Shown: piece after piece, positions 36,041 through 52,405 of the stretch
Layout: each line of letters begins with the position of its first letter
How positions within the stretch are numbered: the first letter of the stretch is position 1
Made by a program: the position numbers and the translations under genes
Source of the DNA: Phycisphaerae bacterium
GTDB taxonomy: Bacteria; Planctomycetota; Phycisphaerae; UBA1845
Length of the DNA: 64,000 bases
NCBI GenBank assembly: GCA_963666835.2
Contig: CAXXGO010000003.1
Location: forward strand, 352,001 to 416,000
Direction of reading: 5' to 3'
Notes under the pieces: generated by a model
What the model was told of the DNA's origin: nothing
Databases searched by the model: none
The model's input: the letters and a program-made list of their open reading frames with translations, nothing else

Positions 36041-36913
36041 ATGGACGTGCTGCGGTACCGAGGCCGGGTTGTCACCGACGCCGACGTCGCCTTCATTGGT
36101 GACCTCATCAGCGCGCATCCAACCGCCACGCGGCGGGCACTGTCCCTGAAGCTGTGCGAGGCCTGGAACTGGGTCCAGCCCAACGGCGTTCTGCGGGACA
36201 TGGTCTGTCGCGGATTGTTGCTGGCGTTGCATCGCGCGGGCCACATCGAGCTGCCGCCGGCGCGGAAGTCCAATCCTCTGGGGCCGCAGCGTCGGACACC
36301 TTCGCGCGCGACGCTCCGCTGTGATCCCATCGAGGGGCGACTGTCCGACATCCTTCCGCTTACCATCGCTCAGGTGCGACGCACCGGTGATGAATCGCTG
36401 TTCGACAGTCTGCTTCAGACCCACCACTATCTGGGCTACACCCAGCCGGTCGGCGAACATTTGAAGTATCTGATCTCGACAAATGGTGTTCCGGTGGCCT
36501 GCCTGGCGTGGTCCTCGGCGCCGCGGCACCTGGGTCCAAGAGACCGCTTCATCGGTTGGTCGGCCGACAGCCGGCGGAAGAACATCCGCTTCATCGCTTA
36601 CAACCTCCGCTTTCTGATCCTGCCGTGGGTCGAGGTCCCTCATCTGGCCTCGCACATTTTGGGTCGCATGGCCCGGGTGTTACCTCAGGACTGGGAGCGG
36701 ATCTACGGCCACCCCATCTACTTCCTGGAGACCTTCGTTGATCCCCAGAGATTCAAAGGCACCTGTTACCGCGCGGCCAACTGGTTGGTTCTGGGGCGCA
36801 CCACGGGCCGGGGCAAGGACGACCTGACCCACCGGCCTAACCGGTCCATCAAAGAGGTGCTGGGCTACCCACTCTCGAAGCATTTTCGAAAACGATTGTG
36901 CCACACCGCATGA
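36041..36913 (+). CDS. DUF4338 (DruA-like) domain protein
   Basis: HHYLGY, GEHLKYL, RDRFIGW, N.RFLILPWV..PHLASHIL, DW..YG, ETFVD..RF.GTCYRAANW..LG.T.GRG. Confidence 0.85.
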   Translation: MDVLRYRGRVVTDADVAFIGDLISAHPTATRRALSLKLCEAWNWVQPNGVLRDMVCRGLLLALHRAGHIELPPARKSNPLGPQRRTPSRATLRCDPIEGRLSDILPLTIAQVRRTGDESLFDSLLQTHHYLGYTQPVGEHLKYLISTNGVPVACLAWSSAPRHLGPRDRFIGWSADSRRKNIRFIAYNLRFLILPWVEVPHLASHILGRMARVLPQDWERIYGHPIYFLETFVDPQRFKGTCYRAANWLVLGRTTGRGKDDLTHRPNRSIKEVLGYPLSKHFRKRLCHTA

Positions 36914-38628
36914 AGAAGACCATACCCATTGAGAAGATCGCTATGAAAGAACTGGAATCCATTCTGCAACGCGCTGAGACGGCTCCGCTGGATGCAAAGG
37001 ACCGCGCGAAGCTCAAGGCGGTGTTCGAATCCTACCTTCACCTGACGGACCTAGTCGAGGACAAGCAGATGACAATCAAGCGTCTACGGCAGATGCTCTT
37101 CGGCGCCGGCACCGAGAAGACCCGCGATGTGATCAAGGAGGAGGAAGACGAACCCGAGTCGCCGCCGGCGACGGGCGGGGATTCGCGTGCCCCGCCGGAG
37201 AAGACGGGCGAAGAGGGCTCGGAACCGCAGCAGAAACGCAAAGGACATGGGCGCAACGGCGCCGACGCCTACACCGGCGCTGAGAAGATCAGGGTGCCTC
37301 ACGAATCCCTCCAGCCGGGGGATTCGTGCCCGGCGTGCAAGAAGGGCACAGTCTACCAGATGAAGAAACCCGGTGTGCTGATCCGGATTGTGGGTCAGGC
37401 TCCGGTGGCGGCCACGGTCTTCGAGCTTCAGAAGCTGCGCTGCCATCTGTGTGGCAAGGTATTCACGGCCGAGCCGCCCGAGGGAGCGGACGAGGAGAAG
37501 TACGACGCGACGGCAGCGAGTATGATCGCCCTGCTGAAGTACGGAAGTGGGTTACCCTTCAATCGATTGGAAGGCCTGCAGGGAAACCTGGGCATTCCTC
37601 TGCCGGCCTCGACCCAGTGGGACATCGTCCGCGACACCGCCGAGATCATCCAGCCGGCCTATGATGAGCTGATCCGGCAGGCTGCCCAGGGGGAGGTGCT
37701 GTACAATGACGATACCACGATGAAGATTCTGGAACTGATGGGGAAGCGGGCTACCGCCAGAGCCTGTGCCGAAGCTGAAGGCGAGGACGAGGGCGATGGC
37801 GCACCCGAACGTGCGAAGAACGTACCCAAGCGCTCGGGGGTGTTCACCTCGGGCATCGTGTCCACCCGCGAAGGGCGCACGATCGCGCTGTTCTTCACGG
37901 GGCGGCGGCACGCTGGGGAAAACTTGGACGAGGTCCTGGCCCACAGAGCCTCGGAGCTGGGTGTGCCGATCCAAATGTGCGACGCCCTGTCGCGTAATGC
38001 GCCCAAGGAATTCGAGACCATCCTGAGCAACTGCCTGTCCCACGGCCGGCGCCAGTTCGTCGATGTGGTGGAGAACTTCCCGGACGAGTGTCGCCACGTG
38101 CTTTTGACCCTGAGGGACGTCTACAAGCATGATGCCATCGCGCAGAAGCAGGACCTGACGTCCGAAGAGCGCCTCCGCTTCCACCAAGCTGAGAGTGGCC
38201 CGCTGATGGACGACCTCAAGGAATGGCTAACCAGGCAACTCAAGGACCACCTGGTGGAGCCGAACTCCGGTCTCGGCGAGGCTATTACCTATATGCTCAA
38301 GCACTGGGACAAGCTGACGCTCTTCTTGCGTAAGGCTGGGGCTCCGCTGGACAATAATGTTTGCGAACGAATTCTGAAGCGGGCGATTCTTCACCGTAAG
38401 AATGCGATGTTCTTCATGAGCGAAAACGGTGCCCGCGTGGGCGATCTATTCATGAGTCTGATCCACTCCTGCCAGCTTTGCGGCGCCAATCCCTTCGATT
38501 ACTTGACCGAGCTACAGAAGCACGCGGCGGAACTCACCTCCGATCCCGCGACGTGGATGCCCTGGAATTACCGGGACGAATGGAAGAGGCGAAACGTGGA
38601 CACGGAAACGGCAGTGGGATATGTCTAA
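36910..38628 (+). CDS. tnpC: IS66 DDE transposase TnpC
   Basis: Leucine zipper, CPAC..CHLC zinc finger, DDT, MCDA, C.SHGRRQF, LDNNVCER.LK, NPFDYL. Confidence 0.93.
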   Translation: MKKTIPIEKIAMKELESILQRAETAPLDAKDRAKLKAVFESYLHLTDLVEDKQMTIKRLRQMLFGAGTEKTRDVIKEEEDEPESPPATGGDSRAPPEKTGEEGSEPQQKRKGHGRNGADAYTGAEKIRVPHESLQPGDSCPACKKGTVYQMKKPGVLIRIVGQAPVAATVFELQKLRCHLCGKVFTAEPPEGADEEKYDATAASMIALLKYGSGLPFNRLEGLQGNLGIPLPASTQWDIVRDTAEIIQPAYDELIRQAAQGEVLYNDDTTMKILELMGKRATARACAEAEGEDEGDGAPERAKNVPKRSGVFTSGIVSTREGRTIALFFTGRRHAGENLDEVLAHRASELGVPIQMCDALSRNAPKEFETILSNCLSHGRRQFVDVVENFPDECRHVLLTLRDVYKHDAIAQKQDLTSEERLRFHQAESGPLMDDLKEWLTRQLKDHLVEPNSGLGEAITYMLKHWDKLTLFLRKAGAPLDNNVCERILKRAILHRKNAMFFMSENGARVGDLFMSLIHSCQLCGANPFDYLTELQKHAAELTSDPATWMPWNYRDEWKRRNVDTETAVGYV

Positions 38629-40084: not shown

Positions 40085-40648
40085 CTACTGCTCGGTAGTT
40101 AAAGCCCGCTTGGGATCGATAGCCACGCCGCACTCCGAGCAGACGCCCGTAACGTTGCCGGTCAGGTCGTAACCGCAGGCAATACACAAACCACGTTTGC
40201 GCCGACGGCGACGGCGAAGTGGGCCGCGGATGAACGTGACGGCCGGGTAGGCCGCCAGAAGACATGCGACGCCCCACGGGAACCTGGCGGACATGTAGAT
40301 GGACAGGTGCCATCCACACGCCCGACTCGGATAGACCTGCACGTTTAGCCCAACAAGTCGTTCGAGGCGTGAGGCCAGCCTGAAACCTTTTGCAGAATCC
40401 ACGATACCGTGAGAGCAACATTGACAACCGGAATACAAACAGTCCTCATTAGCCTCCAAGGCTGCCACCCCGCCGCGCAACACATCAATGGAGCAATACC
40501 AGGGCGAAGGCTGCAAACCACTGTAATACGGCCCCAACCACGGCGATGCACAAACCAGAAACGCGCCGAGGCACGCCATCGACACCGCCCCCAGCGTCAA
40601 CCCGACGATAACGGCCACGCGGAACATCCTGAGGATCTTGCGAATCAC
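40085..40648 (-). CDS. Variable membrane protein with C-terminal Zn ribbon (array member 5)
   Basis: GTG start VIRKIL in GTGA overlap; FIRGPLRRRRRRKRGLCIACGYDLTGNVTGVCSECG. Confidence 0.75.
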   Translation of the reverse strand: MIRKILRMFRVAVIVGLTLGAVSMACLGAFLVCASPWLGPYYSGLQPSPWYCSIDVLRGGVAALEANEDCLYSGCQCCSHGIVDSAKGFRLASRLERLVGLNVQVYPSRACGWHLSIYMSARFPWGVACLLAAYPAVTFIRGPLRRRRRRKRGLCIACGYDLTGNVTGVCSECGVAIDPKRALTTEQ

Positions 40649-41295
40649 GAGGAAACCGCCCTTCCACACTCCGAGCAAACACCCGTGACGTTGCCGGTCA
40701 GGTCGTAACCACAGCCAGTGCATCTTCCGTTGCGCACGCGCCAGTAACGATGGGCTGGTCCGCGAAGGAACACAGTGACCGGATAGAGCGAGAAGACCGT
40801 AAACGCCATCCATATAGGCATCTTCACCGACCATACGGACGTCTGCTTGTTTGCCGCGAAATCCCTGTCTTCTTTGGTGAGCCCGAATCGCCAGCCGGCT
40901 GCGGGAGGCTTCTGGGCATAACACAGAAACTGAAAACCAAGGCCCTCAAGGTCGTGCGGACGGAATGTGGACTCGCGATCAACCTCTACGAACAACCCGA
41001 GGGCAGCATTACCATTGTAGGATTGAAGACACATTCGCCTGCCTGGACCGAGGTCCATGCAACGTCGGTAGCCCGGTGAAACATGACCCGCCAGAGCGTT
41101 CCGCCATCCGGTGGTCAGCCCAACGCGTTGGTGCCACCGAAAAAGCACAAGGAGCTCCCTTCGCATTGAATACGTGGTTCCCCAGCGCTGCGAGTCGTAG
41201 TTGATCGACGTGGCCGTGCTCGAACCCAGACGCCACAGCCAAAGGCACCCCACAGCCCCGAGCACACACCCGAACAGGATGGTCTTGCGGATCAC
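40645..41295 (-). CDS. Variable membrane protein with C-terminal Zn ribbon (member 4)
   Basis: VIRKTIL start; FLRGP..RNGRCTGCGYDLTGNVTGVCSECG. Confidence 0.78.
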   Translation of the reverse strand: MIRKTILFGCVLGAVGCLWLWRLGSSTATSINYDSQRWGTTYSMRRELLVLFRWHQRVGLTTGWRNALAGHVSPGYRRCMDLGPGRRMCLQSYNGNAALGLFVEVDRESTFRPHDLEGLGFQFLCYAQKPPAAGWRFGLTKEDRDFAANKQTSVWSVKMPIWMAFTVFSLYPVTVFLRGPAHRYWRVRNGRCTGCGYDLTGNVTGVCSECGRAVSS

Positions 41296-41933
41296 GAGTC
41301 AATCGCCCTCCCGCATTCGGAGCAGACGCCGGATTCGTTGCCGGTGAGGTTGTAGCCGCAGTTGTGGCAGTACGGACACGAGCGATCCGAACACTTCCCG
41401 AGCTTGCCGTAGACTGTGCGGGCCACAACGAATGATGCCGCCAGCGGAAGTACCAGCAATCCAGCAAGCGCGACGTCTTCTGACCCTAAGGATCGACCGA
41501 GCGCCTTGATCCCGTCGCCCCCCTCCAATAATCCGTACTCAACCATGTTGAGAACGTAATTGGCCACGACCATGGACAGCAGGAACGATGCCCCAGCAAT
41601 GACGAGTCTATGACGGCGATATCGCCGAACAGTCCCTCTAATCGCTACGATGGCCGGGTATATGCTCAGGAGAAGAAACGCCGCCCAGAACGGAATGACA
41701 AAATTGCCCCAGAAACTGACACCGCCATACCGCCCAAGATCGACGGCAAACCCACGGTACCCACAGTAACCAAGCACGCACGGAACAGGGGTTGACGCCC
41801 GATCCAGCAGCCCGAAGCCGCACCAATGCGGCAACGTACCCCCGGACACCGTTAGGTTGGCCGGTCTGACCCATAGGGCAGCCGTCCCGATCGCCGCCAA
41901 TGTCAGCACCACAATGATCGCCTTGCGAATCAC
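41292..41933 (-). CDS. Variable membrane protein with C-terminal Zn ribbon, extra TM pair (member 3)
   Basis: VIRKAII start at 41933; four hydrophobic segments; CHNCGYNLTGNESGVCSECG. Confidence 0.75.
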   Translation of the reverse strand: MIRKAIIVVLTLAAIGTAALWVRPANLTVSGGTLPHWCGFGLLDRASTPVPCVLGYCGYRGFAVDLGRYGGVSFWGNFVIPFWAAFLLLSIYPAIVAIRGTVRRYRRHRLVIAGASFLLSMVVANYVLNMVEYGLLEGGDGIKALGRSLGSEDVALAGLLVLPLAASFVVARTVYGKLGKCSDRSCPYCHNCGYNLTGNESGVCSECGRAIDS

Positions 41934-42503
41934 GGCGTGATCTCCGTACCACACTCCGGGCAGACGCCTGATACGTTCCCTTGTAGGTTGTACCCGCACG
42001 TCAGGCACAGGCCTCGCTCTTTCCGGCGCCAGCGTCGCCACCTACGCATGGGGCCGCGAATGAAGGTGAGCGTCGGGTATGCCACCAAGACGGCCAATGG
42101 AAACCAGTTTGCCACGCGGGCCCTCCAGACCGCATGTTGTCCCGGGGCGGCAGTCGAATAGAACCTCGCCTGGTCCCACTTGAAAACTCCGAGGTCAATC
42201 ACACCGATCGTCACACCGTCCGGATCCTCCGCCCAGTCGTCGCAAAGCACCGAGGTCCAGGCCGAGCTGATCTCAATGCGCAGCATGCGGTCCCACGCAC
42301 CGATCGGTTCGTTCCCGTTGCTGACCCGCCCCTCAGTAGCGACATATACCGCAATCGAGGTGCCGGTCCCGTCTCGACGGACACCCACGCTTCGTCCCTG
42401 AGACAACCAGCCGTATTCCGTTGCCGGAAACGCCAGAACCACCCAGGCGACGGCGTAGACAATCGCCCCGAACGCGCGCGTACAGGATAGTCTTGCGGAT
42501 CAC
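41930..42503 (-). CDS. Variable membrane protein with C-terminal Zn ribbon (member 2; frameshift ~42478)
   Basis: VIRKTILY start at 42503 shifts frame into AFGAIVYAVAWVVLAF; ends FIRGPMRRWRRWRRKERGLCLTCGYNLQGNVSGVCPECG. Confidence 0.7.
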
Positions 42504-43087
42504 GAAGAAACCGCCCTCCCGCATTCGGAGCAAGTGCCGGATTCGTTCCCGGTGAGGTCGTAGCCGCAGGCAACGCATAGGCCGCGCTTCAACCGTCGTC
42601 GTTGTCGGCGTTGACGCATAGACCCGCGGACAACCAGGAGCAGCGGTGCCGCGGAAATGATGAATGGTGCCCACAGCGGGATGTCCAGTTGCCGGTGCCG
42701 CATGATCACATGGTACATTGTGTGGTCGGACAAGTCAGCTTCAACCGTATACAGAGGGATGTCATGCCGATAGAAGCCCAGACATCCGGAGTTGCCCGGT
42801 GACCCGATGGGCATCTCCCAGCCGCGCCGCCTCTTGTCGATCTCCGAGTCGTAGCTCTCTTGATCGTTGTCCCGGACGGTCTCACAGAAGCGCAATACGC
42901 CTCGCAAGCAGTATACCGCCCTCCACGTTCCGCGATCACTGGATACTCCGTATCTCGGGAACGTCGTATAGCTAAGGACCGCCGCAACGACCACGAGAAC
43001 CAGGCTGACTGAGGCGCAGACGACGAGCAGGCGAAGCACCCTCGGCACCCACCTGACTCTTGCGTCGACCACACCCCTCTCGTGCAT
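42500..43087 (-). CDS. Variable membrane protein with C-terminal Zn ribbon (member 1)
   Basis: Two TMs; RRRLKRGLCVACGYDLTGNESGTCSECG; start uncertain (ORF open to 43252). Confidence 0.72.
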   Translation of the reverse strand: MHERGVVDARVRWVPRVLRLLVVCASVSLVLVVVAAVLSYTTFPRYGVSSDRGTWRAVYCLRGVLRFCETVRDNDQESYDSEIDKRRRGWEMPIGSPGNSGCLGFYRHDIPLYTVEADLSDHTMYHVIMRHRQLDIPLWAPFIISAAPLLLVVRGSMRQRRQRRRLKRGLCVACGYDLTGNESGTCSECGRAVSS

Positions 43088-43555
43088 TCGTCTCTCCCGA
43101 CCATCGCGTCGGATGGGCACATCTCTCCACTTCGTCCCCCAGACTACCAAGACCCCATGATACCGAACCCTCCACCTGCTCGCCAGGAGGATCCATGGCC
43201 ATCCCCCGGAGGACTGCTCACGCGCCGGAAGAGGGCCAAGCCTAAAGGACACGGCCAGCCCGCATCACTCGCGACGTTCGCATGAGTCTGTGTAACGTAC
43301 GTTAGCGTCACCACTTGTCGATAGCGTTATTGTAACAGAGCGTGCTTCCACGCCAGGGACAAGCCCTGGCCCTACACTGGTTTGCGGCGTATACTTCGTT
43401 TGGATGAGTGATTCGGGCTGGGATTAACACGGGGGCGGGGAATCTCTCGCCGTCGACAGGCGTTCCAGGTTCTTGTCCTCCCTATCCGGAACTCAGCTAG
43501 AACACTCGTTACTCTCTGATTCCGTCGCCCGCGTTCACGATATGCTGTATACGTG

Positions 43556-44377
43556 TCACTTCAGATCGAACAGGCTGTTGTCGTCGGTTTGCCCGAACCA
43601 GCCGATGTTGAGGCGGTCGGGGTCGGCCATGTAGATGCCGCTGGAGAAGGTGAGGGTGCGGCGCTGGGCGTCGACGTGGCCGTCGCACCAGCCGACGCCG
43701 GCCAGGCCGTTGTGGCGGAAGTGAATGGACGGGTCGGCCCGGTAGTCGGGGTAGCTGGGGTGGTATCGCGGCTCGACGAAGCTGTATTCAATCAGTTGCG
43801 TGCCCGCGAAAGCGGTTTCGGCGAACATAATGGTCTCGGCGGGCCGCACGACCCATCCAACCAGGGCGCCGGCCCGATCGTTAATCACCTCATACTCGCC
43901 CGAGGGGTACTCCTTCAACTGCACGCCGATGAAGGCGTTGTTGTAGCCGTAACCGCCGTTACCGCGTTCGAAACCGCCGCTTTCGGCGGCGATCTCCTCG
44001 GCGGGGAATGTCGGGCACTGCCGGATCCGCCCTTCCGCCCCGAGGTACGGAACAAGCGGGCCGCGGGTCGAGTCGAAAGCCTCCGCCGGATTGTCGCGTT
44101 GCCCGTGCCAGCGATGCAGATTCTTGTGCATACTCTCGGCGCCGGGGCAATAGACGCCGTCGTTATCCTCGGCGTAGTAGCCGTTGGCGACGATAAGCTG
44201 GTTCAGATTGGAGCGGCAGACGACGCTCTTGGCCTGCTCCCGGGCGGCGGACAAACTCGGCAGGAGCATTGAGGCCAGCAGTACGATCATGCCCATCACG
44301 ACGAGCATCTCCAGCAGGGTCAACGCGCTGCGCCGGCATGTCGGGGGATGTGGCGGCGAGGTTGAGGTGATCGTCAC
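43556..44377 (-). CDS. DUF1559-type prepilin N-terminal cleavage / H-X9-DG protein
   Basis: RSALTLLEMLVVMGMIVLLASMLLPSLSAAREQAKSVVCRSNL; FRHNGLAGVGWCDGHV; start approximate. Confidence 0.88.
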   Translation of the reverse strand: MTITSTSPPHPPTCRRSALTLLEMLVVMGMIVLLASMLLPSLSAAREQAKSVVCRSNLNQLIVANGYYAEDNDGVYCPGAESMHKNLHRWHGQRDNPAEAFDSTRGPLVPYLGAEGRIRQCPTFPAEEIAAESGGFERGNGGYGYNNAFIGVQLKEYPSGEYEVINDRAGALVGWVVRPAETIMFAETAFAGTQLIEYSFVEPRYHPSYPDYRADPSIHFRHNGLAGVGWCDGHVDAQRRTLTFSSGIYMADPDRLNIGWFGQTDDNSLFDLK

Positions 44378-44559
44378 GGGCAAGCGGACCGCTGGGCTTG
44401 CCGAGTGAACGATCTTGAGCTGTGGTAGGTCATCCGGTACCGCACGTTCTGCTCGATGCTTGCCCATGCCACCCCGGTGATTGCCAATCCGGGGCCTGCC
44501 GGGGCTGATCGTCAATGCCGGATAGCCGCGGATGCCGTGCATGGCGAGAGTATCCTACA

Positions 44560-45700
44560 TTACTGCGGTCCGAGTAGCCGCGCGGAGAATGCCGAGAAAT
44601 CAGAAAGATCCACCAGGGCCGGGGGCGCCCAGGTTCATCCGATCGCAAGGCTCACCGACATTCGTAGTCCGGCCTAGGCACCTTTGCATACCGACCATGT
44701 CTGCCAGATCGATGTCACCATCTTCGTCCCAGTCTCCGAAGGGATCCGGGGCAACGTCGGCCACAGCGTCTATTTCCGGAGATTTCTCGCCGAATCTGCC
44801 CAGCAACACATTTGTTGGGTTCGTCAGGCGGATCAGATTGAAACCCGGCAGATCCGCCGGGAGCATCGTCTCCGGATCAACCGCCCAGGCAATGTCGAAC
44901 GCGTCCCCCCCACCGGAGCCCGGAGTGATTCCGACAACAAGTGGATCATCCGGCACAGTGTAGAACTCCTCCGGCGTTATCTGCGGGTCGTCAACTATGT
45001 TGTCTGCATCGAGATCACCCAGAAACAAGGTAGGCGCGTAGTCGGCATACCCGTAGATACCCTCCACTTCGGGGTCTTCCGCCGGGTTCTCCATTATCAG
45101 ATCCTCGAACGGACTCGCCGGCAGCATCGTGGCACCGGTGTACCAGACTCCGGTCATACCCGGCGGGACCCACGATAGCAGAGTCGGCGGAGTATCCGTA
45201 TCGGGATCGTCGTCCCATTCCTGGGTGGCCCACTGCCCTACCGGATCCACAACGTGAGAGCCCGGGATCAAATACCAACCCTCGTCCGGGTCTACGTCTC
45301 CGTCACCGTTAGCGTCGAGGGCGATCTCAATCGTGCCGCATTCCGCCCAGTGCCGGTGAGCCTGCGAGTCGACCCAGAACGCGTTTCCATAGACGATCGC
45401 ATCCACCCCGAACGCGTTGCGGGGATCATCTTGCACAACGTGGTCGAACCCCAATGTAATACTGCCCCCGAACCCGCCGAGTGAGACTACCGACGCGTTG
45501 CTCGGGTCGAAAGTGCCTGCTCCGATCGGCGGACCAAGTGCCCGCGCCGGATCGTCGTAGTCCGCCTTAGTAACGAACTTCCCTGGCGCCGGCGAGAAAT
45601 CAATCACCGATACGGCAAACGGGCTGTCGCCTCTTGCCGGCACGGCCCCAAGCACCAGCGCAACCGCGACAGCTCGAACCGCAGGTAGAACGTCCTTCAC
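44560..45700 (-). CDS. BtuH-like cell-surface protein with C-terminal dockerin-like repeats (frameshift ~44620)
   Basis: GGAGG RBS and GTG at 45700; signal peptide; FSPAPGKF, VSLGGFGGSITLGFDH, YGNAF, DANGDG..WYLIPGS, GYADY; GDWDEDGDIDLAD then, in another frame, VDLSDFSAF..GPQ-stop. Confidence 0.65.
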
Positions 45701-46876
45701 AAGCCCACCTCCTGCAGAGCAACAGTTCTCGCCAAACCGCTTGTCCTCCGTCGATGCAGAATGAGCGTGCCCACCGTCAGTACCCCGAAAACCATAACGA
45801 TCATCCCCCAAGCGCTGACCGCGGGTACGGAATCCGCAGGAGCCGTTGTAGACATAGACCGTACTAGCCCCGAAATCTGCAATGAGAAGCTCGCGTGTAT
45901 TCGCGTTGTATCCGGCGGAGAAGAAGTTGTTGTCGTTCGGCTCATCCGGGTCGAGCCGCCGCACGTCAGTTGGATCACTCGGATCTACGGGACCGAGACC
46001 TGCTACCGCATCGGCCACCGCCGTAGCACGGACCACGGCCACGAAATCCTCTTCATCTATACCCGCGTAGTAGTCGCCCCCCCCAACGTGCATATTGCCC
46101 TCGGCATCAAAACCCAGCGAGTTGCCCGACAGAATATCGACGACCTCCAGCCCGCCCGACTCGAAGTCCAACGGCGCTCCGCCGGCAAGGGCGGCCGTCC
46201 ATGCGGCGTGCGCGAAGACCTTGACCAGCCCGGTCCCGCTGGGTCCGTCGGACTGGAAGCCGTTGGCGGTGTAGAGGTTTCCGTCGCCATCGAACGTGAT
46301 CCCACCGGAGCTGCCCCCGATGTTGTCGATCACCGCCGGGTTGTCCGGATCCGCCGGGCTTGTGCGTACATCAAGGACCGTGACGACGCTGGTCGGCGGC
46401 ACCGGACGAGCCGTGATAGCCAAGCGCGACTCATCGTACCATTCGGCATCGAAGTGCTCGACTGAGTACCAATCCCCCCCCGTCAAGGCCGGAAACGGGA
46501 GAATGCCCAGTTGGAAGTCATCGTAACCGGGCGCCTGGCTGCCGCCGCCATTGCCCACCGCAATCGCGGACCCGGCCGGCGACACCCGCAGGAAGGCGGA
46601 AGCCCAGAGCGTCGGCACGTCAATCCCGGCAGGGATCGTTCCGCAAACGGTGAACGACCCCGCTCCGGCCGCGTCCTCCAGATAAAGGTCCCGACCGCAA
46701 AGAGCGATGACCCGCCCATCCGGCAGCGGATCGAATACGCAGTTTGCCTGTGGCAACTCAAAGGAAGACTCGAGCGCGTAGCCTTCAAAAGCACCGGCTA
46801 ACGCCATGGCGGGAAACAACGCAGGCCACATGACGACGAGCGTGGCCGGCCCTCGATGCTGAAGAGAACACATCAT
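45697..46876 (-). CDS. Secreted beta-propeller-like protein with IPTL-CTERM-like sorting signal (frameshift ~45838)
   Basis: AAGGAG RBS, signal peptide, GGITFDGDGNLY and SLGFDAEGNMHV blades; VPAVSAWGMIVMVFGVLTVGTLILHRRR tail lies in an adjacent frame. Confidence 0.65.
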
Positions 46877-46926
46877 CCCAGCGACTCCTTTCTCCAGCCC
46901 GCCCGACACCACGCGGAACGAAGCTG

Positions 46927-46975
46927 GAAAAAAAGAAAATCCCGGTGCCCCACATGGTTCGGGAGCACCGGGATC
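46927..46975 (-). terminator. Intrinsic terminator in riboswitch expression platform
   Basis: Minus strand ATCCCGGTGCTCC-loop-GGGGCACCGGGAT followed by TTTCTTTTTTT, between aptamer and start codon. Confidence 0.8.
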
Positions 46976-47085
46976 AATGTCGCTCGAAATCCAAGCCGCC
47001 GCGCCATCGCAAGATGGCCTTGCTGCTTTTGCCGGTAACGACAGATCGCGGCGCCACAACCCCCGAGGCACCACTATCACCAAAC

Positions 47086-47285
47086 AGCGACCACCGGCAG
47101 GTCTTCTGGCTTACGGATCATCCTACTAGCCACGCCTTCTCCGCATGTCGGCGTTCACCCAAGGCAGCTCGCCCGACAGCACGAATGGCTCGTGTGGCGT
47201 TCGTCCCCGATCACAGCGGCGGGTCCACGGTGGATTCTCACCACCTTCCCTCAAGTCCGTCACTTAACGGACACCGGCGATCGCG
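47086..47285 (-). ncRNA. Cobalamin riboswitch
   Basis: Minus strand GGTGTCCG..CGGAC-TTGAGGGAA-GGTGG-TGAGAAT-CCACC..CCCGCCGCTGTGA..GAGAAGG..AAGCCAGAAGACCTGCC (B12 box); P1 GCGATCGCCGG/CCGGTGGTCGC. Confidence 0.92.
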
Positions 47286-47569
47286 ACCTATTCACTTGTC
47301 AAAACTACGTCGAGCGTCTCCCGACCACAGCACCATAACCACGCCCTTTTCGGCGGTCAAGTGACAGGTTTTGCGGGATTAGCAGCCTCCGGCGTGCGGT
47401 TTTGCCCCCGAATCGCAGAGCCTGCGCCGCCGCCTCGACACGCCCGCGGCGATGTGCGATACTACAGGGCTGTGTACATTTGAAGAAGAAACGACGCCGC
47501 AGACGACGCCGCGGAGGCCCGCGGCCTGCAGAGTGCAGACGGTCTTATTGGGACGCTTTTTCTGCCGTG

Positions 47570-49778
47570 ATGGAACCTGACTCGCTAGTTGAATTGGTTA
47601 AAAGCGGTAACATCGGAACGGTCGAACAGGAGTGGATGGGCATTATCGAGTCCCCCGAGGTCTCCCCGAAGAAGCTCGCCGCCTATGCCAAGGTGCTCTC
47701 CGAGATGTGCCAGGCCAACAAGTGCCCGCAAGCCGGGGAGTTGGCTTGGTCCGCGATTGAATCCCTTTCATCCCGATACTCGCCGTCCGAGACGCTTACC
47801 GCGGCCGGACCGTTCCTCCTCGGCATCGGAGACAACGCAGAGGTTCGCGCATCGGTAACCGAGCTCTATCGGAAGGCTTACGCAGATTGCCAGGGGCTTG
47901 ACGAGTTGCTTACCGAGGCAGGCATCGCCGGCGGGCGTCCGGTTCGCAGGGCTCTACGCACGTTGGACGTTTGCCTCAGACTGGAGGAGGGCGATTACCT
48001 GGCCGCCCGCCACGAGGACGCCGTTGCTCGTATCGACAGTATCGAGCGGCCCGTCCTGGGAGTTCTCAATCACCCTGGACGGAGAACAGAACACCCTCGG
48101 GCCGGTGCACCTCGCAGACACGTATCGTCCCGGTCCCGGCCACGGATTTCCACGTTCTGATGCACTTCGCCCCGGAGGAGGTGGCGAAGCTGCTGCGCAA
48201 TGATCCGGTTACCATCGTTACGGACATCTGCCGACGGCACGGTGGTCGGATCGACAGCGACGAGTTAGCGGACGAACTGGTGCCGCGTCTGATGGACGAG
48301 GCGGAATGGAAGAAGTGGTGGACCCGCGCTCGAACCGCGCTGAAAGAAGTCCCCGCACGTTACGTTGACTGGACGGTCTCCGTACGAGATCACGTACTCA
48401 GCGAAACCGGTACCGGCCGAGGAGTTGTTCATTCGAGATTTCCGCACTCTGCGCGACCCCAACAAGCAATGGTCGCTCATTGAGAAGTACGTTCGCGAGT
48501 GCAAGCTGCGAGACAGCGACCCGGACCCGGCAGTCATGCGCGAGTGTTACGAGGACTTCCGCGGAAGAGCCCAGCGCATGACGGCGTCCGGCGCCATCGC
48601 TGCCGGCCTGCATTGGATGATCGCGTCCTATGTGGGCGAGCTGGCCGGAGTCGCTGACGCAGAAGCCGGAGCGCTCGAGCTTTTTCGCGAAGCACAAGAC
48701 CCCCGCAGCCCTGCTCCGCTCCATCGATTCTGATGTTCTGGTAACTCGCGCATGGCAGTATCTGATCGAGGCCAAGCCGGAGTCTTGGCGAGATGAGCTT
48801 ATCGAGATCCTCCCGGCCCTGCCTCTGGCGGCGTGTGACGGGGTGGCCCAGCGGCTCATCGAGTCAGGTCGCTCGGTTGCAGATTTCGAGCCGGTGATCG
48901 AGCGGATTCTCGCCTCGCCGTTGCCACACTTCGACGCCCTTCTGTGGCTCTGGAACGGTCCGTCAAACAAAGAGCTTCTGGCCAACGTGACGCCGATTTC
49001 GATCCTCACGCGGATCTTGCGCACTCTGGAGTTTGCCAGGCTGTCGGATGACGTCCCCAACGACGCGCTCAAACGTATGAAAGCAGTCGCTCGAGCGGTA
49101 GTCCCCGCCCGCAAACGCGAACGTTTCCGAGAGTGCCTCGACGGTCTGGAGCCCGGCGTTGCCCGAACCCTCAAACTGCAGATCTCGCGCGGCGAGGGGT
49201 TTGGTTATAGTGTCCGAGACGACCTCGTTCGTGAAATCGAACGGCGATTGCCGACAGAAGCCGCGGAAACCGGAAATCGAACCCTGGAAGCGCGAGGATA
49301 TTCTATTCGCCACGCGGGCCGGAATCTCCCGCAAGCAAGAGGAAATCGATCATCACGTAAACGTCAAAATGGCCGAGAACGCTCGTGCCATCGGCGCGGC
49401 AGCCGAGCGCGGCGATCTCAGTGAGAACTCGGAGTACAAGTTCGCCCTGGAAGAGCGCGACCTTCTGCGGGCTCGCCTTGCCCAGATGAACTCCGAGATT
49501 GGCCATCGCCCAGGTAATCGACCCCGACGATGTCTCTACCGAGCACATCGACATTGGGACTCGAGCGGTTTTCCGGCGCATGGCGGACGGCGCCGAATAC
49601 GCGATGACCTTCGTAGGACCGTGGGAGGCGGACAGCGAAAAAGCGATGTTCAACTATCGAGCCCCCTCTGGCGCAGCGGTTGATGGGTATGCGGATTGGT
49701 GACGAGGTCGAGTTCGACCACGCAGACGTAAGTGGGAAGTACGAGATCGTAGCGTTGCACAACTCCCTGGCTGACTAG
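47570..49778 (+). CDS. greA: GreA/GreB-family factor with long N-terminal extension (several frameshifts)
   Basis: ENARAIGAAAERGDLSENSEYKFALEE, TFVGPWEAD, WKKWWTRAR; pieces lie in successive frames. Confidence 0.8.
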
Positions 49779-49828
49779 GAACGCGGCGGGATTACTCGCA
49801 CGGACCGTCTGAAACGGAGAGACAAGCT

Positions 49829-50891
49829 GTGAAGGCCGGCAATAATCGGGCTGCCTCAATCAGGCAAATCGACCGTATTCCTCTGCGCTGACCGGGACCG
49901 CCTCGGATCCTTACGCCCCACCGGAGCCAAGTACTGGCGGTTGTGCATGTTCCCGAACCGCGGCTTGCCGTACCTGGTCAATCTGTACCAACCCAAGAAG
50001 GTCATTCGAGACTACGGCAGAATTCATAGATGTGCCTGGCTGTTCGCGTCGATGACTCCAAGGGACAGGAGGAATGGCGACGGGTCCTTCCGGTCGTGCG
50101 TCAGGCGGACCTTCTGTTGGTCGTCCTGCGGGACTTCGAACTAAGCGGCACGTCGAAGCCTGATCCGAAGGCGGAGTTCGCGGCTATGTGGAACGAACTC
50201 ATCTTTGCAGACCTTGACACGGTCACTACGCGGATCGGAGAGGATCGAGGCAGCCCTCAAGAAGCCTACAAAGACCCATGATGAGGAGAAGCGCGAGCTG
50301 GCCCTGCTCGTGCGGTGCCGCGAGGCTTTGGAGTCGGAGGCCCCCCTATCGACCGTCTTAGATACTGAAGAAGGAAAGAAACAACTCCGGAGCTTCGCTT
50401 TTCTAACGGAGAAGCCGGTCGTTTGTGTGCGAAACGTGGCGGACGATAAGGTCCGATCGGAAGTTGACCCTGCAACTCGACCACGTCGAGGACTCGGTAG
50501 TACTGTGCGCAGAGATCGAAGCGGAGATCGCCCAGTTGGACCCCGCGGACCGTCCTTCGTTCCTGGCGGACTATGGTCTTGAAAGCCCCGCGAGCGATCG
50601 TCTCATCAAAACCTGCTATCGATGCGGCGGCCTGATCTGTTTCATCACGGTCGGCCCCGACGAGGTCCGAGCATGGGAAATCGCCGCCGGGAGCACTGCG
50701 GTCGAGGCCGCAGGCAAGATCCACACCGATCTCGCCCGGGGGTTCATCCGCGCGGAAACCGTGGCCTACGACGACTTCGTAGCGAACACGGACATGAAAG
50801 GCGCCCAAGGCCGCCGGCAAAGTCCGCAAGGAAGGCAAGACCTACATTGTGCAGGACGGCGATCTGCTCAACATCCTCCTCGAGCGCTTGA
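49829..50891 (+). CDS. ychF: YchF-like ATPase (DUF933), several frameshifts
   Basis: IIGLPQSGKST, ELIFADL, FLTEKP, FITVGPDEVRAW, AGKIHTDLARGFIRAE, YIVQDGD across frames. Confidence 0.85.
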
Positions 50892-51075
50892 AGTGCAACG
50901 CGGACGTGCCCGCCCCCCAGGCGGACCGCTTGGCCTCTTGGCCGGCGCGGCTTCCGACGAGGTGTTGCATCCAGCCGGAATCTGGTAGAGTATCCGGAGC
51001 CGGTGCGGACCCCGGTCCGCCGGATCCGCCCGGCGTGATACATCGATCAGCCCGGGCTCTATCCGGACCTGATTG

Positions 51076-51150
51076 CGGGGCGTAGCGCAGTTTGGTTAGC
51101 GCGCTTGACTGGGGGTCAAGAGGTCGCTGGTTCGAATCCAGTCGCCCCGA
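51076..51150 (+). tRNA. tRNA-Pro (GGG)
   Basis: CGGGGCG acceptor stem, anticodon arm CTTGA-CTGGGGG-TCAAG, GGTTCGAATCC T-arm; CCA not encoded. Confidence 0.96.
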
Positions 51151-51264: not shown

Positions 51265-52405
51265 ATGGCTTGGAAGGCCAGGCCGCGATACAAGCCCGCC
51301 TCGCAACGAGTGGGTACTTCGCTACCAAAACAAGAGTCACTATCTCTGCTCCGGATCTGACAACGAGGCGCTCGCCTGGGCAAAGGCCCAACAGATCCTG
51401 GGCGATACTGGACAGCCTGACGGCCCCCATCGAAACGGTAGGGGCAGCGTGTGAAGACTGGCTCAAAGCATACCACCCCTCGTCCAACTGGCACGCTCAG
51501 ATGCTCGCCCCGTTTATGAACTGGACGGAGGGGCTCATGCCTTGACAATGTCACGCCTACACTCCTGAAGAGATACCTGACGCACCTTCAGAGCATCACC
51601 TACAAGCGAGGGAGACACGAGAAACACTACAGCCCCGCGACGATCCGACGGCAGATGAGGTTCGCCCCGCGCCGTTTTGGAGGAGGCCCGCCAGAACGGA
51701 CACATGTCGCGTCCAACGCCCCCCATGCCCCGCCTGCCCAAGATCCCGCTGGTGGCCCGTGACATCTCGCCGGAAGACCTGAAGAGGATCTTCGAGTACC
51801 TCCCCGTTCGTGCTCGGCGAGTCCTGTACTTCGCGTCGGCCACGGGGATGCGCCCCAGCGAAGCTCGGCTTCTTCGTTGGGACGAGATCCATGAGGATAA
51901 GTGTATCCTTAACCGCGGTAAGACCTACAAAGCAACCGGACAGCCGCGAATAGCCCACCTGAACTCTGATGCAAGGGCGGTGCTGGACTCCGTGCCCGGC
52001 GAGAGGCAGGGGCACGTCTTCTTGAACAGCCTCGGCAAGCCGTACGGGGTAAGCGGACTCCGTTCCATCTTCAAACGGGCAGCCGCCAGTGCCGGGGTCG
52101 AGGTGACCGGCCCGTACCAACTCAGGCATTCGTGGGCGCAGACCCTCTACGACTCCGGGCAACTCTCGCTGGATATGATCGGCGCCGAACTCGGTCATAC
52201 GCCTGGCTCCCCTGTCACGAAAGTGTACGCCCGGATTGGGGAGCAACGCGTTGCGAAGGCCGTGCAAGGCCTAAACGCACCAGTCGCTCCCGGTCTGCTT
52301 GACGCAAAGCGTCGGAAGACCTCTTCTTCGGGGAAGCGATACCGAGGAAGCGGTTCAAAGAAGACTCGAAAAACCGCCAAGGGCCGGAACCGTCAAGCTG
52401 GATAG
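51265..52405 (+). CDS. int: Tyrosine recombinase/integrase (N-terminal half frameshifted)
   Basis: TGMRPSEA, GKT, YQLRHSWA, LGH, TKVY; GGAGG RBS before ATG 51265. Confidence 0.88.

Follow-up and report, generated by a model that had tools for sequence, protein, structure and literature searches.

The window analyzed here, a stretch of 64,000 nucleotides from a Phycisphaerae bacterium (phylum Planctomycetota; assembly GCA_963666835.2, contig CAXXGO010000003.1, positions 352,001 to 416,000), carries a minus-strand operon in which a cobalamin riboswitch is followed by genes for an exported beta-propeller (gene A), a BtuH homologue (gene B), and a prepilin-type protein with an H-X9-DG motif (gene C). 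We propose, with a probability of roughly two in three, that this is a B12-repressed corrinoid-capture operon in which gene C works specifically in the uptake of corrinoids. The capture role, first suggested in a preliminary description of this DNA, is supported by the riboswitch, by the BtuH homology of gene B, and by the occurrence of BtuJ in the position of gene A in relatives. That the operon is real is confirmed, with the corrections given below. As a whole, it may represent a real, undescribed variant of B12 uptake, possibly with a new outer-membrane step.

Anatomy of the operon

The cobalamin aptamer recognized in the preliminary description scores 104 bits (E 6e-25) on the RF00174 covariance model in cmscan, above the gathering score of 31.5, with a match spanning model positions 1-189. 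Located at 47079-47293 (minus strand), it is the sole cobalamin riboswitch in the host genome (6.0 Mb, 92% complete). Behind it, as also described before, stands the intrinsic terminator of the expression platform (46928-46974, minus strand), a hairpin of 14 pairs at 46940-46974 with a U tract at 46928-46939. The hairpin lies about 105 nucleotides downstream of the aptamer and ahead of the start of gene A at 46876; a terminator pattern scan of the window did not pick it up, and it was found by folding. In the folded leader, 9 of the 10 stem pairs tested have a probability of about 1.0, and the leader fold beats 200 of 200 shuffles (z -3.66). The antiterminator candidate is weak (-14.4 kcal/mol), and we infer that the terminator may be switched by ligand. 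A weak sigma-70-like promoter (47332-47360, minus strand; 9 of 12 consensus letters) lies 39 nucleotides upstream of the aptamer and is a candidate only, as the scan returned two sites against 1.5 expected by chance.

Terminator, A, B, and C follow the riboswitch in that order, and a GTGA overlap couples the start of gene B to the stop of gene A. As written, the window reads differently: gene A lacks its anchor and continues in frame into gene B, and the dockerin tail of gene B is cut off. Both breaks are caused by one-base insertions, at 45846 in gene A and at 44616 in gene B. The extra bases are absent from contigs of two runs of one sample (X1 and X2), which hold a slightly different strain; a contig from another study (X4) also lacks the one at 45846, and X3 bridges neither site. 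Intact gene A corresponds to a database protein of 392 residues, P0121 (100% identity over 344 residues). The two insertions are assembly errors, and the true anatomy is three genes; the idea that A and B are truly fused in frame in this genome was rejected on the evidence of intact P0121 and the strain contigs. The three genes thus stand as first described, although both frameshifts had been passed over in silence. No TonB receptor or ATP-binding cassette (ABC) transporter adjoins the operon, in agreement with the preliminary description; elsewhere in the genome both kinds occur. The nearest named homologues belong to Phycisphaerae or Planctomycetota.

Gene B (44560-45700, minus strand, with a GTG start) encodes a signal peptide, a BtuH-like domain, and a dockerin-like tail, and is a BtuH homologue as judged by sequence and predicted fold. 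This similarity had been proposed from a few motifs, and independent searches agree with it. In a phmmer search of PDB, the sole significant matches are 8blw_B (BtuG1; E 2.4e-12) and 7biz_A (BtuH2; E 3.5e-7), and profile comparison gave E 1.3e-27 and 7.7e-20 with both domain ends matched. The structure model (predicted local distance difference test, pLDDT, 95.2) matched 8BLW and 7BIZ in Foldseek (E 6.5e-14); VIA-align gave these two Z 22.9 and 21.6, with the next family at 9.3, and the root mean square deviation from the BtuH structures is about 3 A over about 228 residues. The named motifs are present as PAPGKF, SLGGFGGSITLGFDH, and GNAF. Among the reported B12 contacts of BtuH2 (Q333, N399, F401, H476, Y510, W511, W577, and L578; PMC8941943), N399 is kept in all 121 of 121 family rows; Q occupies the Q333 position in 112 rows, F or L the L578 position in 99, and F the F401 position in 76. 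A dockerin domain (PF00404) was found in the homologue P0004, and no cysteine is seen by eye in the signal region of gene B.

Gene A (45697-46876, minus strand) encodes an exported propeller with an IPTL/PEP-CTERM-like tail. Its model (pLDDT 94.7) has 24 strands, which we read as six four-stranded blades. In P0121, the tail has VPAVSAWG as its motif, followed by a hydrophobic helix and a cluster of basic residues. The preliminary description had named it an IPTL-CTERM anchor; the tail scores 14.6 bits on PF18203, below the cut-off of 20.8, and several homologues carry PF18203 or PF07589. Structural matches are tied among many propeller kinds (Z 18-22.6; Foldseek, VIA), the profile search gave weak propeller matches only, and Atlas leads, which are leads only, point to DUF4394/NHL-type propellers. 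The suggested likeness to BtuG was not upheld: BtuG2 is reported to be seven-bladed (PMC10404256), and gene A was rejected as a BtuG homologue for its six blades and lack of a sequence link. No BtuG chain appeared among the rows listed by Foldseek or VIA or in sequence searches, though kinship may still exist. Gene A probably has a B12 role nonetheless, as read from gene context, because BtuJ/DUF4465 replaces it in its slot in relatives.

Gene C (43556-44542, minus strand) starts at ATG 44542 or GTG 44377 and encodes the prepilin site and H-X9-DG motif that had been noted at the outset. The site reads RRSA/LTLLE, with the predicted cut at the slash and the first mature codon at 44323, and has the layout of a class III signal: a basic leader, A at -1, a hydrophobic residue at +1, Glu at +5, and a hydrophobic helix. 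Glu +5 is invariant among family rows, as are H211 and D221 in alignments of 57 and 39 rows; the H-X9-DG motif of the window copy is H-NGLAGVGWC-DG at 43714-43679. Beyond this, the family profile matches only the N-terminal helices of type IV pilins; the head has W79, Y134, F189, F209, and W249 as invariant aromatic positions. The DUF1559 label is a loose one: the window protein has no PF07596 (DUF1559) or TIGR04294 match at E<=0.1, whereas at E<=0.01 its orthologues match PF07596 in 35 of 57 cases (best 6.9e-8) and TIGR04294 in 20 of 57. Similarly, PF07963 matches 45 of 57 orthologues, with the window copy under the cut-off. Gene C scores 408 bits, and the next-best paralogue of the host genome 95. 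Atlas leads, again leads only, are unnamed or weakly SBP_bac_10 clusters that are commonest in Verrucomicrobiota. The contigs of X1 and X2 diverge at 44423-44518 (13 substitutions and an in-frame deletion of 15 bases) but hardly at all in the coding cores, which suggests that the stretch ahead of the prepilin site is weakly constrained.

Conservation of the operon and occurrence of BtuB

Conservation among close relatives was followed in the best 80 of 298 GTDB loci of gene B, to which all counts of this paragraph apply. Of the 72 loci with enough upstream DNA, 68 have a riboswitch ahead of the operon (53 found by nhmmer with the window aptamer, 15 by cmscan), and none was found in L035, L055, L059, and L077. 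Gene C lies at most 285 nucleotides behind gene B in 72 of 75 loci. The slot of gene A is more variable: it holds A in 59 loci, DUF4465/BtuJ with a PEP-CTERM-type tail in 11, and another PEP-CTERM protein in three, and is empty in three; one locus is unresolved and three are ended by contig ends. The three other proteins form a second, unnamed PEP-CTERM family without a Pfam match between riboswitch and gene B (L047:795-1859, L056:6594-7763, and L057:1094-2137). In four loci (L010, L032, L037, and L050), the propeller is joined directly to the BtuH domain, in the same domain order as in Bacteroides BtuGH.

Gene C is also found fused to binders. A C-profile search for longer proteins returned 31 hits of 536-1197 residues, in 30 of which a BtuH-like domain precedes the prepilin site (16 strong, 14 weak). 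At the usual junction, a sorting motif, hydrophobic helix, and basic cluster run directly into A or G followed by FTLxELL, a layout suggesting that the basic tail of the anchor doubles as the prepilin leader. P0269 combines A-like, B-like, and C parts in one protein. Several fusions have 6-7 cluster members, one such cluster including Candidatus Hydrogenedens proteins; two fusion clusters also contain short C-only calls, and P0246 and P0247, with long linkers, may be chance read-through. A metagenome scan with P0253 returned mostly unrelated repeat or dockerin proteins and no fused locus; the fusions are known from protein records.

Across the class, we sampled 101 evenly spread genomes, each at least 90% complete, and 95 of them have a riboswitch over the cut-off. 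Linkage was computed on the best 140 of 150 listed C-profile hits. Within these, 87 of 95 genomes have their best C hit at most 3.6 kb downstream of a riboswitch and on its strand, 90 have some listed C hit so placed, and C follows 97 of the 118 riboswitches; in four of the five genomes without a linked C, the riboswitch is at most 2.6 kb from a contig end. Lower-ranked paralogues are linked much less (10 of 40 at ranks 101-140 of the listed hits). The other components are sparser. DUF4465 occurs in 13 of the 101 genomes, always between riboswitch and C, and gene A in six, always directly behind the riboswitch; B-profile hits in 43 genomes include five strong ones, the rest being weak and some dockerin only. 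Gene C is the conserved core of the operon, and the binders vary.

The phylum sample (151 genomes) was searched with a narrower C profile at E<=1e-28, with 17 candidates scored per genome. A riboswitch is present in 143 genomes and a C hit in 20, of which 18 stand behind a riboswitch. Where this subfamily occurs, BtuB is scarce, in line with the BtuB-independent route first suggested. BtuB-like receptors, scored with TIGR01779 and counted as present at E<=1e-10, were detected in 32 of 101 class genomes; in the phylum sample, 4 of the 20 genomes with C have them, as do 99 of the 131 without C. Fisher tests on this pattern (P 2.6e-6 and 0.008) are not used as proof, because kin genomes are not independent. 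In many other lineages of the phylum, the switch is followed immediately by a BtuB-like gene, and the sole strong riboswitch-linked TIGR01779 hit of the class sample is in G071.

Gene runs place C beside known uptake and synthesis genes: riboswitch-BtuJ-X-C-btuF-D-C in G071, riboswitch-btuF-C-D-C in G074, riboswitch-C-small protein-btuFCD-cobQ-cobO in G057, and riboswitch-C-small protein-PF01902-DUF6580-btuF in G035. Riboswitch linkage, these runs, and the BtuH-C fusions together tie one prepilin/H-X9-DG subfamily to B12, as the preliminary description had proposed. They also bear on another explanation, in which C is a secretion adaptor, a cargo-specific pseudopilin for type II export or display of A, B, and BtuJ that makes no contact with B12, the vitamin crossing the outer membrane by another, unregulated channel. 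C does usually stand behind exported proteins and is also fused behind them; signal-peptide genes are reported often to flank genes of its family (PMC8567305), and a pulG-like pseudopilin of an alginate cluster has been interpreted as export-related (PMC13274419). The signature of the C subfamily nevertheless tracks the riboswitch whatever the neighbor (BtuH-like, BtuJ, or propellers), and C is present without a recognized surface binder in the operons of G074, G057, and G035. We therefore consider export of the binders an unlikely sole task of C and favor a dedicated part in corrinoid uptake. Separately, in five loci outside the Phycisphaerae (L140, L141, L147, L148, and L149), a small exported CxxC protein lies behind C, with zinc-ribbon Pfam hits in L147, and is a candidate partner of C.

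Possible routes of corrinoid entry and the host genome

We propose the following sequence of events. When B12 is scarce, the terminator would be read through and A, B, and C made, as expected from known riboswitch function. B and probably A would be exported to the envelope and capture corrinoids there with high affinity, as homology and gene swapping suggest; A would be held by its exosortase-type tail and B would carry its dockerin-like tail, with BtuJ or other binders swapped in by relatives. C would be cut by prepilin peptidase and, from its gene context, may bear a ligand-specific aromatic head. It would then pass the corrinoid to an unlinked BtuF-BtuCD-like importer, standing where other diderms have BtuB. 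How C would do so is more tentative. It may bridge the outer membrane as a pseudopilus or pilus moving through a secretin, or it may be a membrane-anchored periplasmic receptor; we give each of these two options a similar and rather low likelihood.

In its widest form, the proposal would have B12 cross the outer membrane of Phycisphaerae and other lineages by way of a minor pilin and a secretin, without a TonB-dependent barrel, a speculation that we think doubtful as it stands. Sortase-anchored BtuH, BtuJ, or propeller binders would load B12 onto the pilin, which would be specific for this ligand and would be carried by a type II/type IV machine through the secretin to BtuF-BtuCD; some species would make binder and pilin as one chain, to be cut by exosortase and prepilin peptidase. 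The host genome encodes five secretins, a prepilin peptidase, and exosortases. A BtuF/BtuC/BtuD-like ABC set lies about 65 kb from the operon, without a riboswitch.

Three tandem TonB receptors elsewhere in the host genome could be a different way in. They are far below the BtuB cut-off and score 285 bits on NF053590 against 106 on TIGR01779, with a substrate-binding gene alongside. The operon could thus be an accessory B12 reservoir, with entry through generic TonB receptors or porins and with C co-regulated and without a transport role. Such a reservoir would match the reported part of Bacteroides BtuH and BtuJ as accessories to BtuB (PMC8941943, PMC13616437) and the finding that some relatives have binders without C or BtuB. 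The host receptors, however, follow no riboswitch and sit beside a substrate-binding gene with their best score on NF053590, and in nearly all of the 69 of 101 class genomes that have no TIGR01779 hit at E<=1e-10, C still stands behind the riboswitch. We judge a mere reservoir quite unlikely, more so than export of the binders, and retain dedicated uptake.

The host itself is a probable B12 auxotroph, judging from its predicted genes: seven B12-binding domains exceed their cut-offs, and searches for CbiC, CobS, and MetE in the 92% complete genome found none. A last alternative is that the operon serves to scavenge cobalt or corrinoid precursors, or that C is a B12-repressed adhesive pilin for B12-producing partner cells. 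Cobalamin riboswitches also govern cobalt genes, CbiK stands behind the switch in G087, C adjoins cobQ and cobO in G057, and pilins act as adhesins. B and its substitute BtuJ, in contrast, come from families shown to bind intact cobalamin, and cobalt or precursors would be of little use to a host that lacks CbiC and CobS at this completeness. Scavenging or adhesion is thus highly improbable, and capture of intact corrinoids remains the reading that we prefer.

Several observations weigh against it. The operon is known from sequence, predicted structures of A and B, and gene context, and the head of C has no solved relative. In the window copy of gene B, the position of Q333 holds K; in the family, W577 is not conserved, and H476, Y510, and W511 could not be aligned, the middle of BtuH2 being still unaligned when a BtuH-like protein of G012 was used as a bridge. 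The three host TonB receptors are candidate B12 ports, and in G071 a riboswitch-linked BtuB-like receptor occurs alongside C. Riboswitch-linked genes, at least nine of them from class-sample genomes, make up part of the C profile (A5), and no riboswitch lies within 6 kb of the C orthologue in two genomes of one genus (G055 and G072). The pattern of C and BtuB follows lineage, and the P values given above overstate it. Finally, 32 of 151 phylum genomes have neither C nor a BtuB-like hit, and in 21 of the 24 such genomes examined the riboswitch lacks a C-like gene in its neighborhood of about 5 kb (three of them ended by contig ends); C is therefore not the sole BtuB-free solution. The other 3 of the 24 have a more distant C behind the switch.

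In the 21 genomes without a nearby C, what follows the switch is a secreted propeller, a BtuH-like or BtuJ protein, btuF, or a synthesis gene. Ten loci (L156, L157, L160, L161, L163, L167, L168, L173, L176, and L179) have riboswitch-led secreted proteins, mostly without a Pfam family. By their sequence context, the secreted proteins of such lineages are further candidate B12 binders. In G055, two cobalamin riboswitches (L183 and L184) each precede a canonical DUF1559 gene, with 197 and 157 bits on PF07596; the two genes share identical N-termini and possibly represent a mobile riboswitch-leader module.

Other features of the window surround the operon. Directly downstream of C, genes for at least five paralogous membrane proteins stand in tandem (40085-43252, minus strand); the proteins end in a CxxC-GY[DN]L[TQ]GN-CxECG zinc-ribbon tail, and only a weak DUF7129 match was found (E 0.04). 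Upstream, at 47580-51000 (plus strand), two genes are each split over several frames, which we take to be a long gene with a GreA-like domain at its end and a YchF-like GTPase gene; together with the two errors in the operon, they suggest a high indel rate in the assembly. A tRNA (51076-51150), an open reading frame at 51677-52405, and minus-strand genes up to 54564 form a probable integrated element, the reading frame being presumably tyrosine-recombinase-like and the minus-strand genes phage-like or like those of an integrative and conjugative element (ICE). A transposase-like gene pair at 36041-38628 (plus strand) is, we assume, IS66-like.

The proposal gives the C subfamily of DUF1559/H-X9-DG proteins a candidate ligand, a regulator, and partners, and it supplies growth at low B12 as an easily scored phenotype, such that the function of one of the largest planctomycete paralogue families becomes directly testable. 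It also suggests how diderms that depend on B12 but have few TonB receptors, or none, may obtain the vitamin. With gene B, the BtuH family reaches outside the Bacteroidota, and gene A is a new candidate for a propeller that binds B12. Should C work through a secretin, this would be a new route of small-molecule import; and, if import is indeed TonB-free, the expanded DUF1559/H-X9-DG repertoire could be a set of interchangeable, substrate-specific uptake heads.

Comparison with known systems

Surface B12 binders under riboswitch control are known in Bacteroides (PMC13616437, PMC12751083, bioRxiv 2025.07.01.662609). No link of DUF1559-type or prepilin proteins to B12, and no paper on DUF1559 with cobalamin, was found in the open-access literature, with most subscription papers and bioRxiv supplements outside this scope. 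The closest counterparts of gene B are BtuH2 (BT_1956, PDB 7BIZ) and the H-domain of BtuG1/BtuGH (PDB 8BLW) of B. thetaiotaomicron, with which it shares the fold, the motifs PAPGxF, SLGGFGG, and GNAF, and a riboswitch-controlled locus. The Bacteroides proteins have a lipoprotein anchor and PKD domains, whereas gene B has a Sec-type signal and a dockerin-like tail; and btuH is usually an operon-mate of btuB there (in the gut, more than 80% of btuH genes have btuB in their operon; PMC8941943), while no btuB is present in the operon described here. A 2026 review places BtuH only in Bacteroidota and three Firmicutes (PMC13616437).

BtuG2, the surface lipoprotein lid of BtuB in Bacteroides, is, like gene A, a beta-propeller encoded in a B12 uptake locus. 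Gene A differs from it in its six modelled blades, its C-terminal sorting tail in place of a lipid anchor, its lack of a BtuB partner, and the lack of any sequence link found. BtuJ/DUF4465 is the protein that takes the gene A slot in 11 of 80 loci, with its PEP-CTERM-type tail; DUF4465 (PF14717) proteins, including members from Mucisphaera and Coraliomargarita, are reported to bind B12 (bioRxiv 2025.08.21.671476), and the available part of that report does not mention a neighboring prepilin gene. A DUF4465 profile search found no BtuJ in the host genome.

The regulatory logic is that of the E. coli-type btuB riboswitch with BtuB-TonB and BtuF-BtuCD. In the E. coli type, a beta-barrel stands behind the switch; here, a prepilin-type protein stands there instead. 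In relatives, C shares operons with btuF/C/D, and the BtuFCD-like set of the host is unlinked.

With the DUF1559 (PF07596, SBP_bac_10)/H-X9-DG (TIGR04294) proteins, gene C has in common the prepilin helix, an SNxxQ segment, and the H-X9-DG end. These proteins are described as of unknown function (PMC10632474, PMC8567305; see also PMC13274419 and PMC2667541) and number 68 paralogues in Planctopirus limnophila (PMC10632474) and 91 in Tuwongella (PMC8567305). The C subfamily is divergent from them, usually has one or two copies per genome, and has motifs of its own (RWxG, GGYGYN, EYSFxEP, HFRH, and GWFG). Finally, Legionella PilA2 is reported to aid iron acquisition independently of piliation and of PilD cleavage (PMC13170364). 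As described there, it is a major pilin that serves iron and has neither riboswitch nor binder partners, unlike C; it is nonetheless a precedent for a type IV pilin in micronutrient uptake and fits the option that C is a periplasmic receptor.

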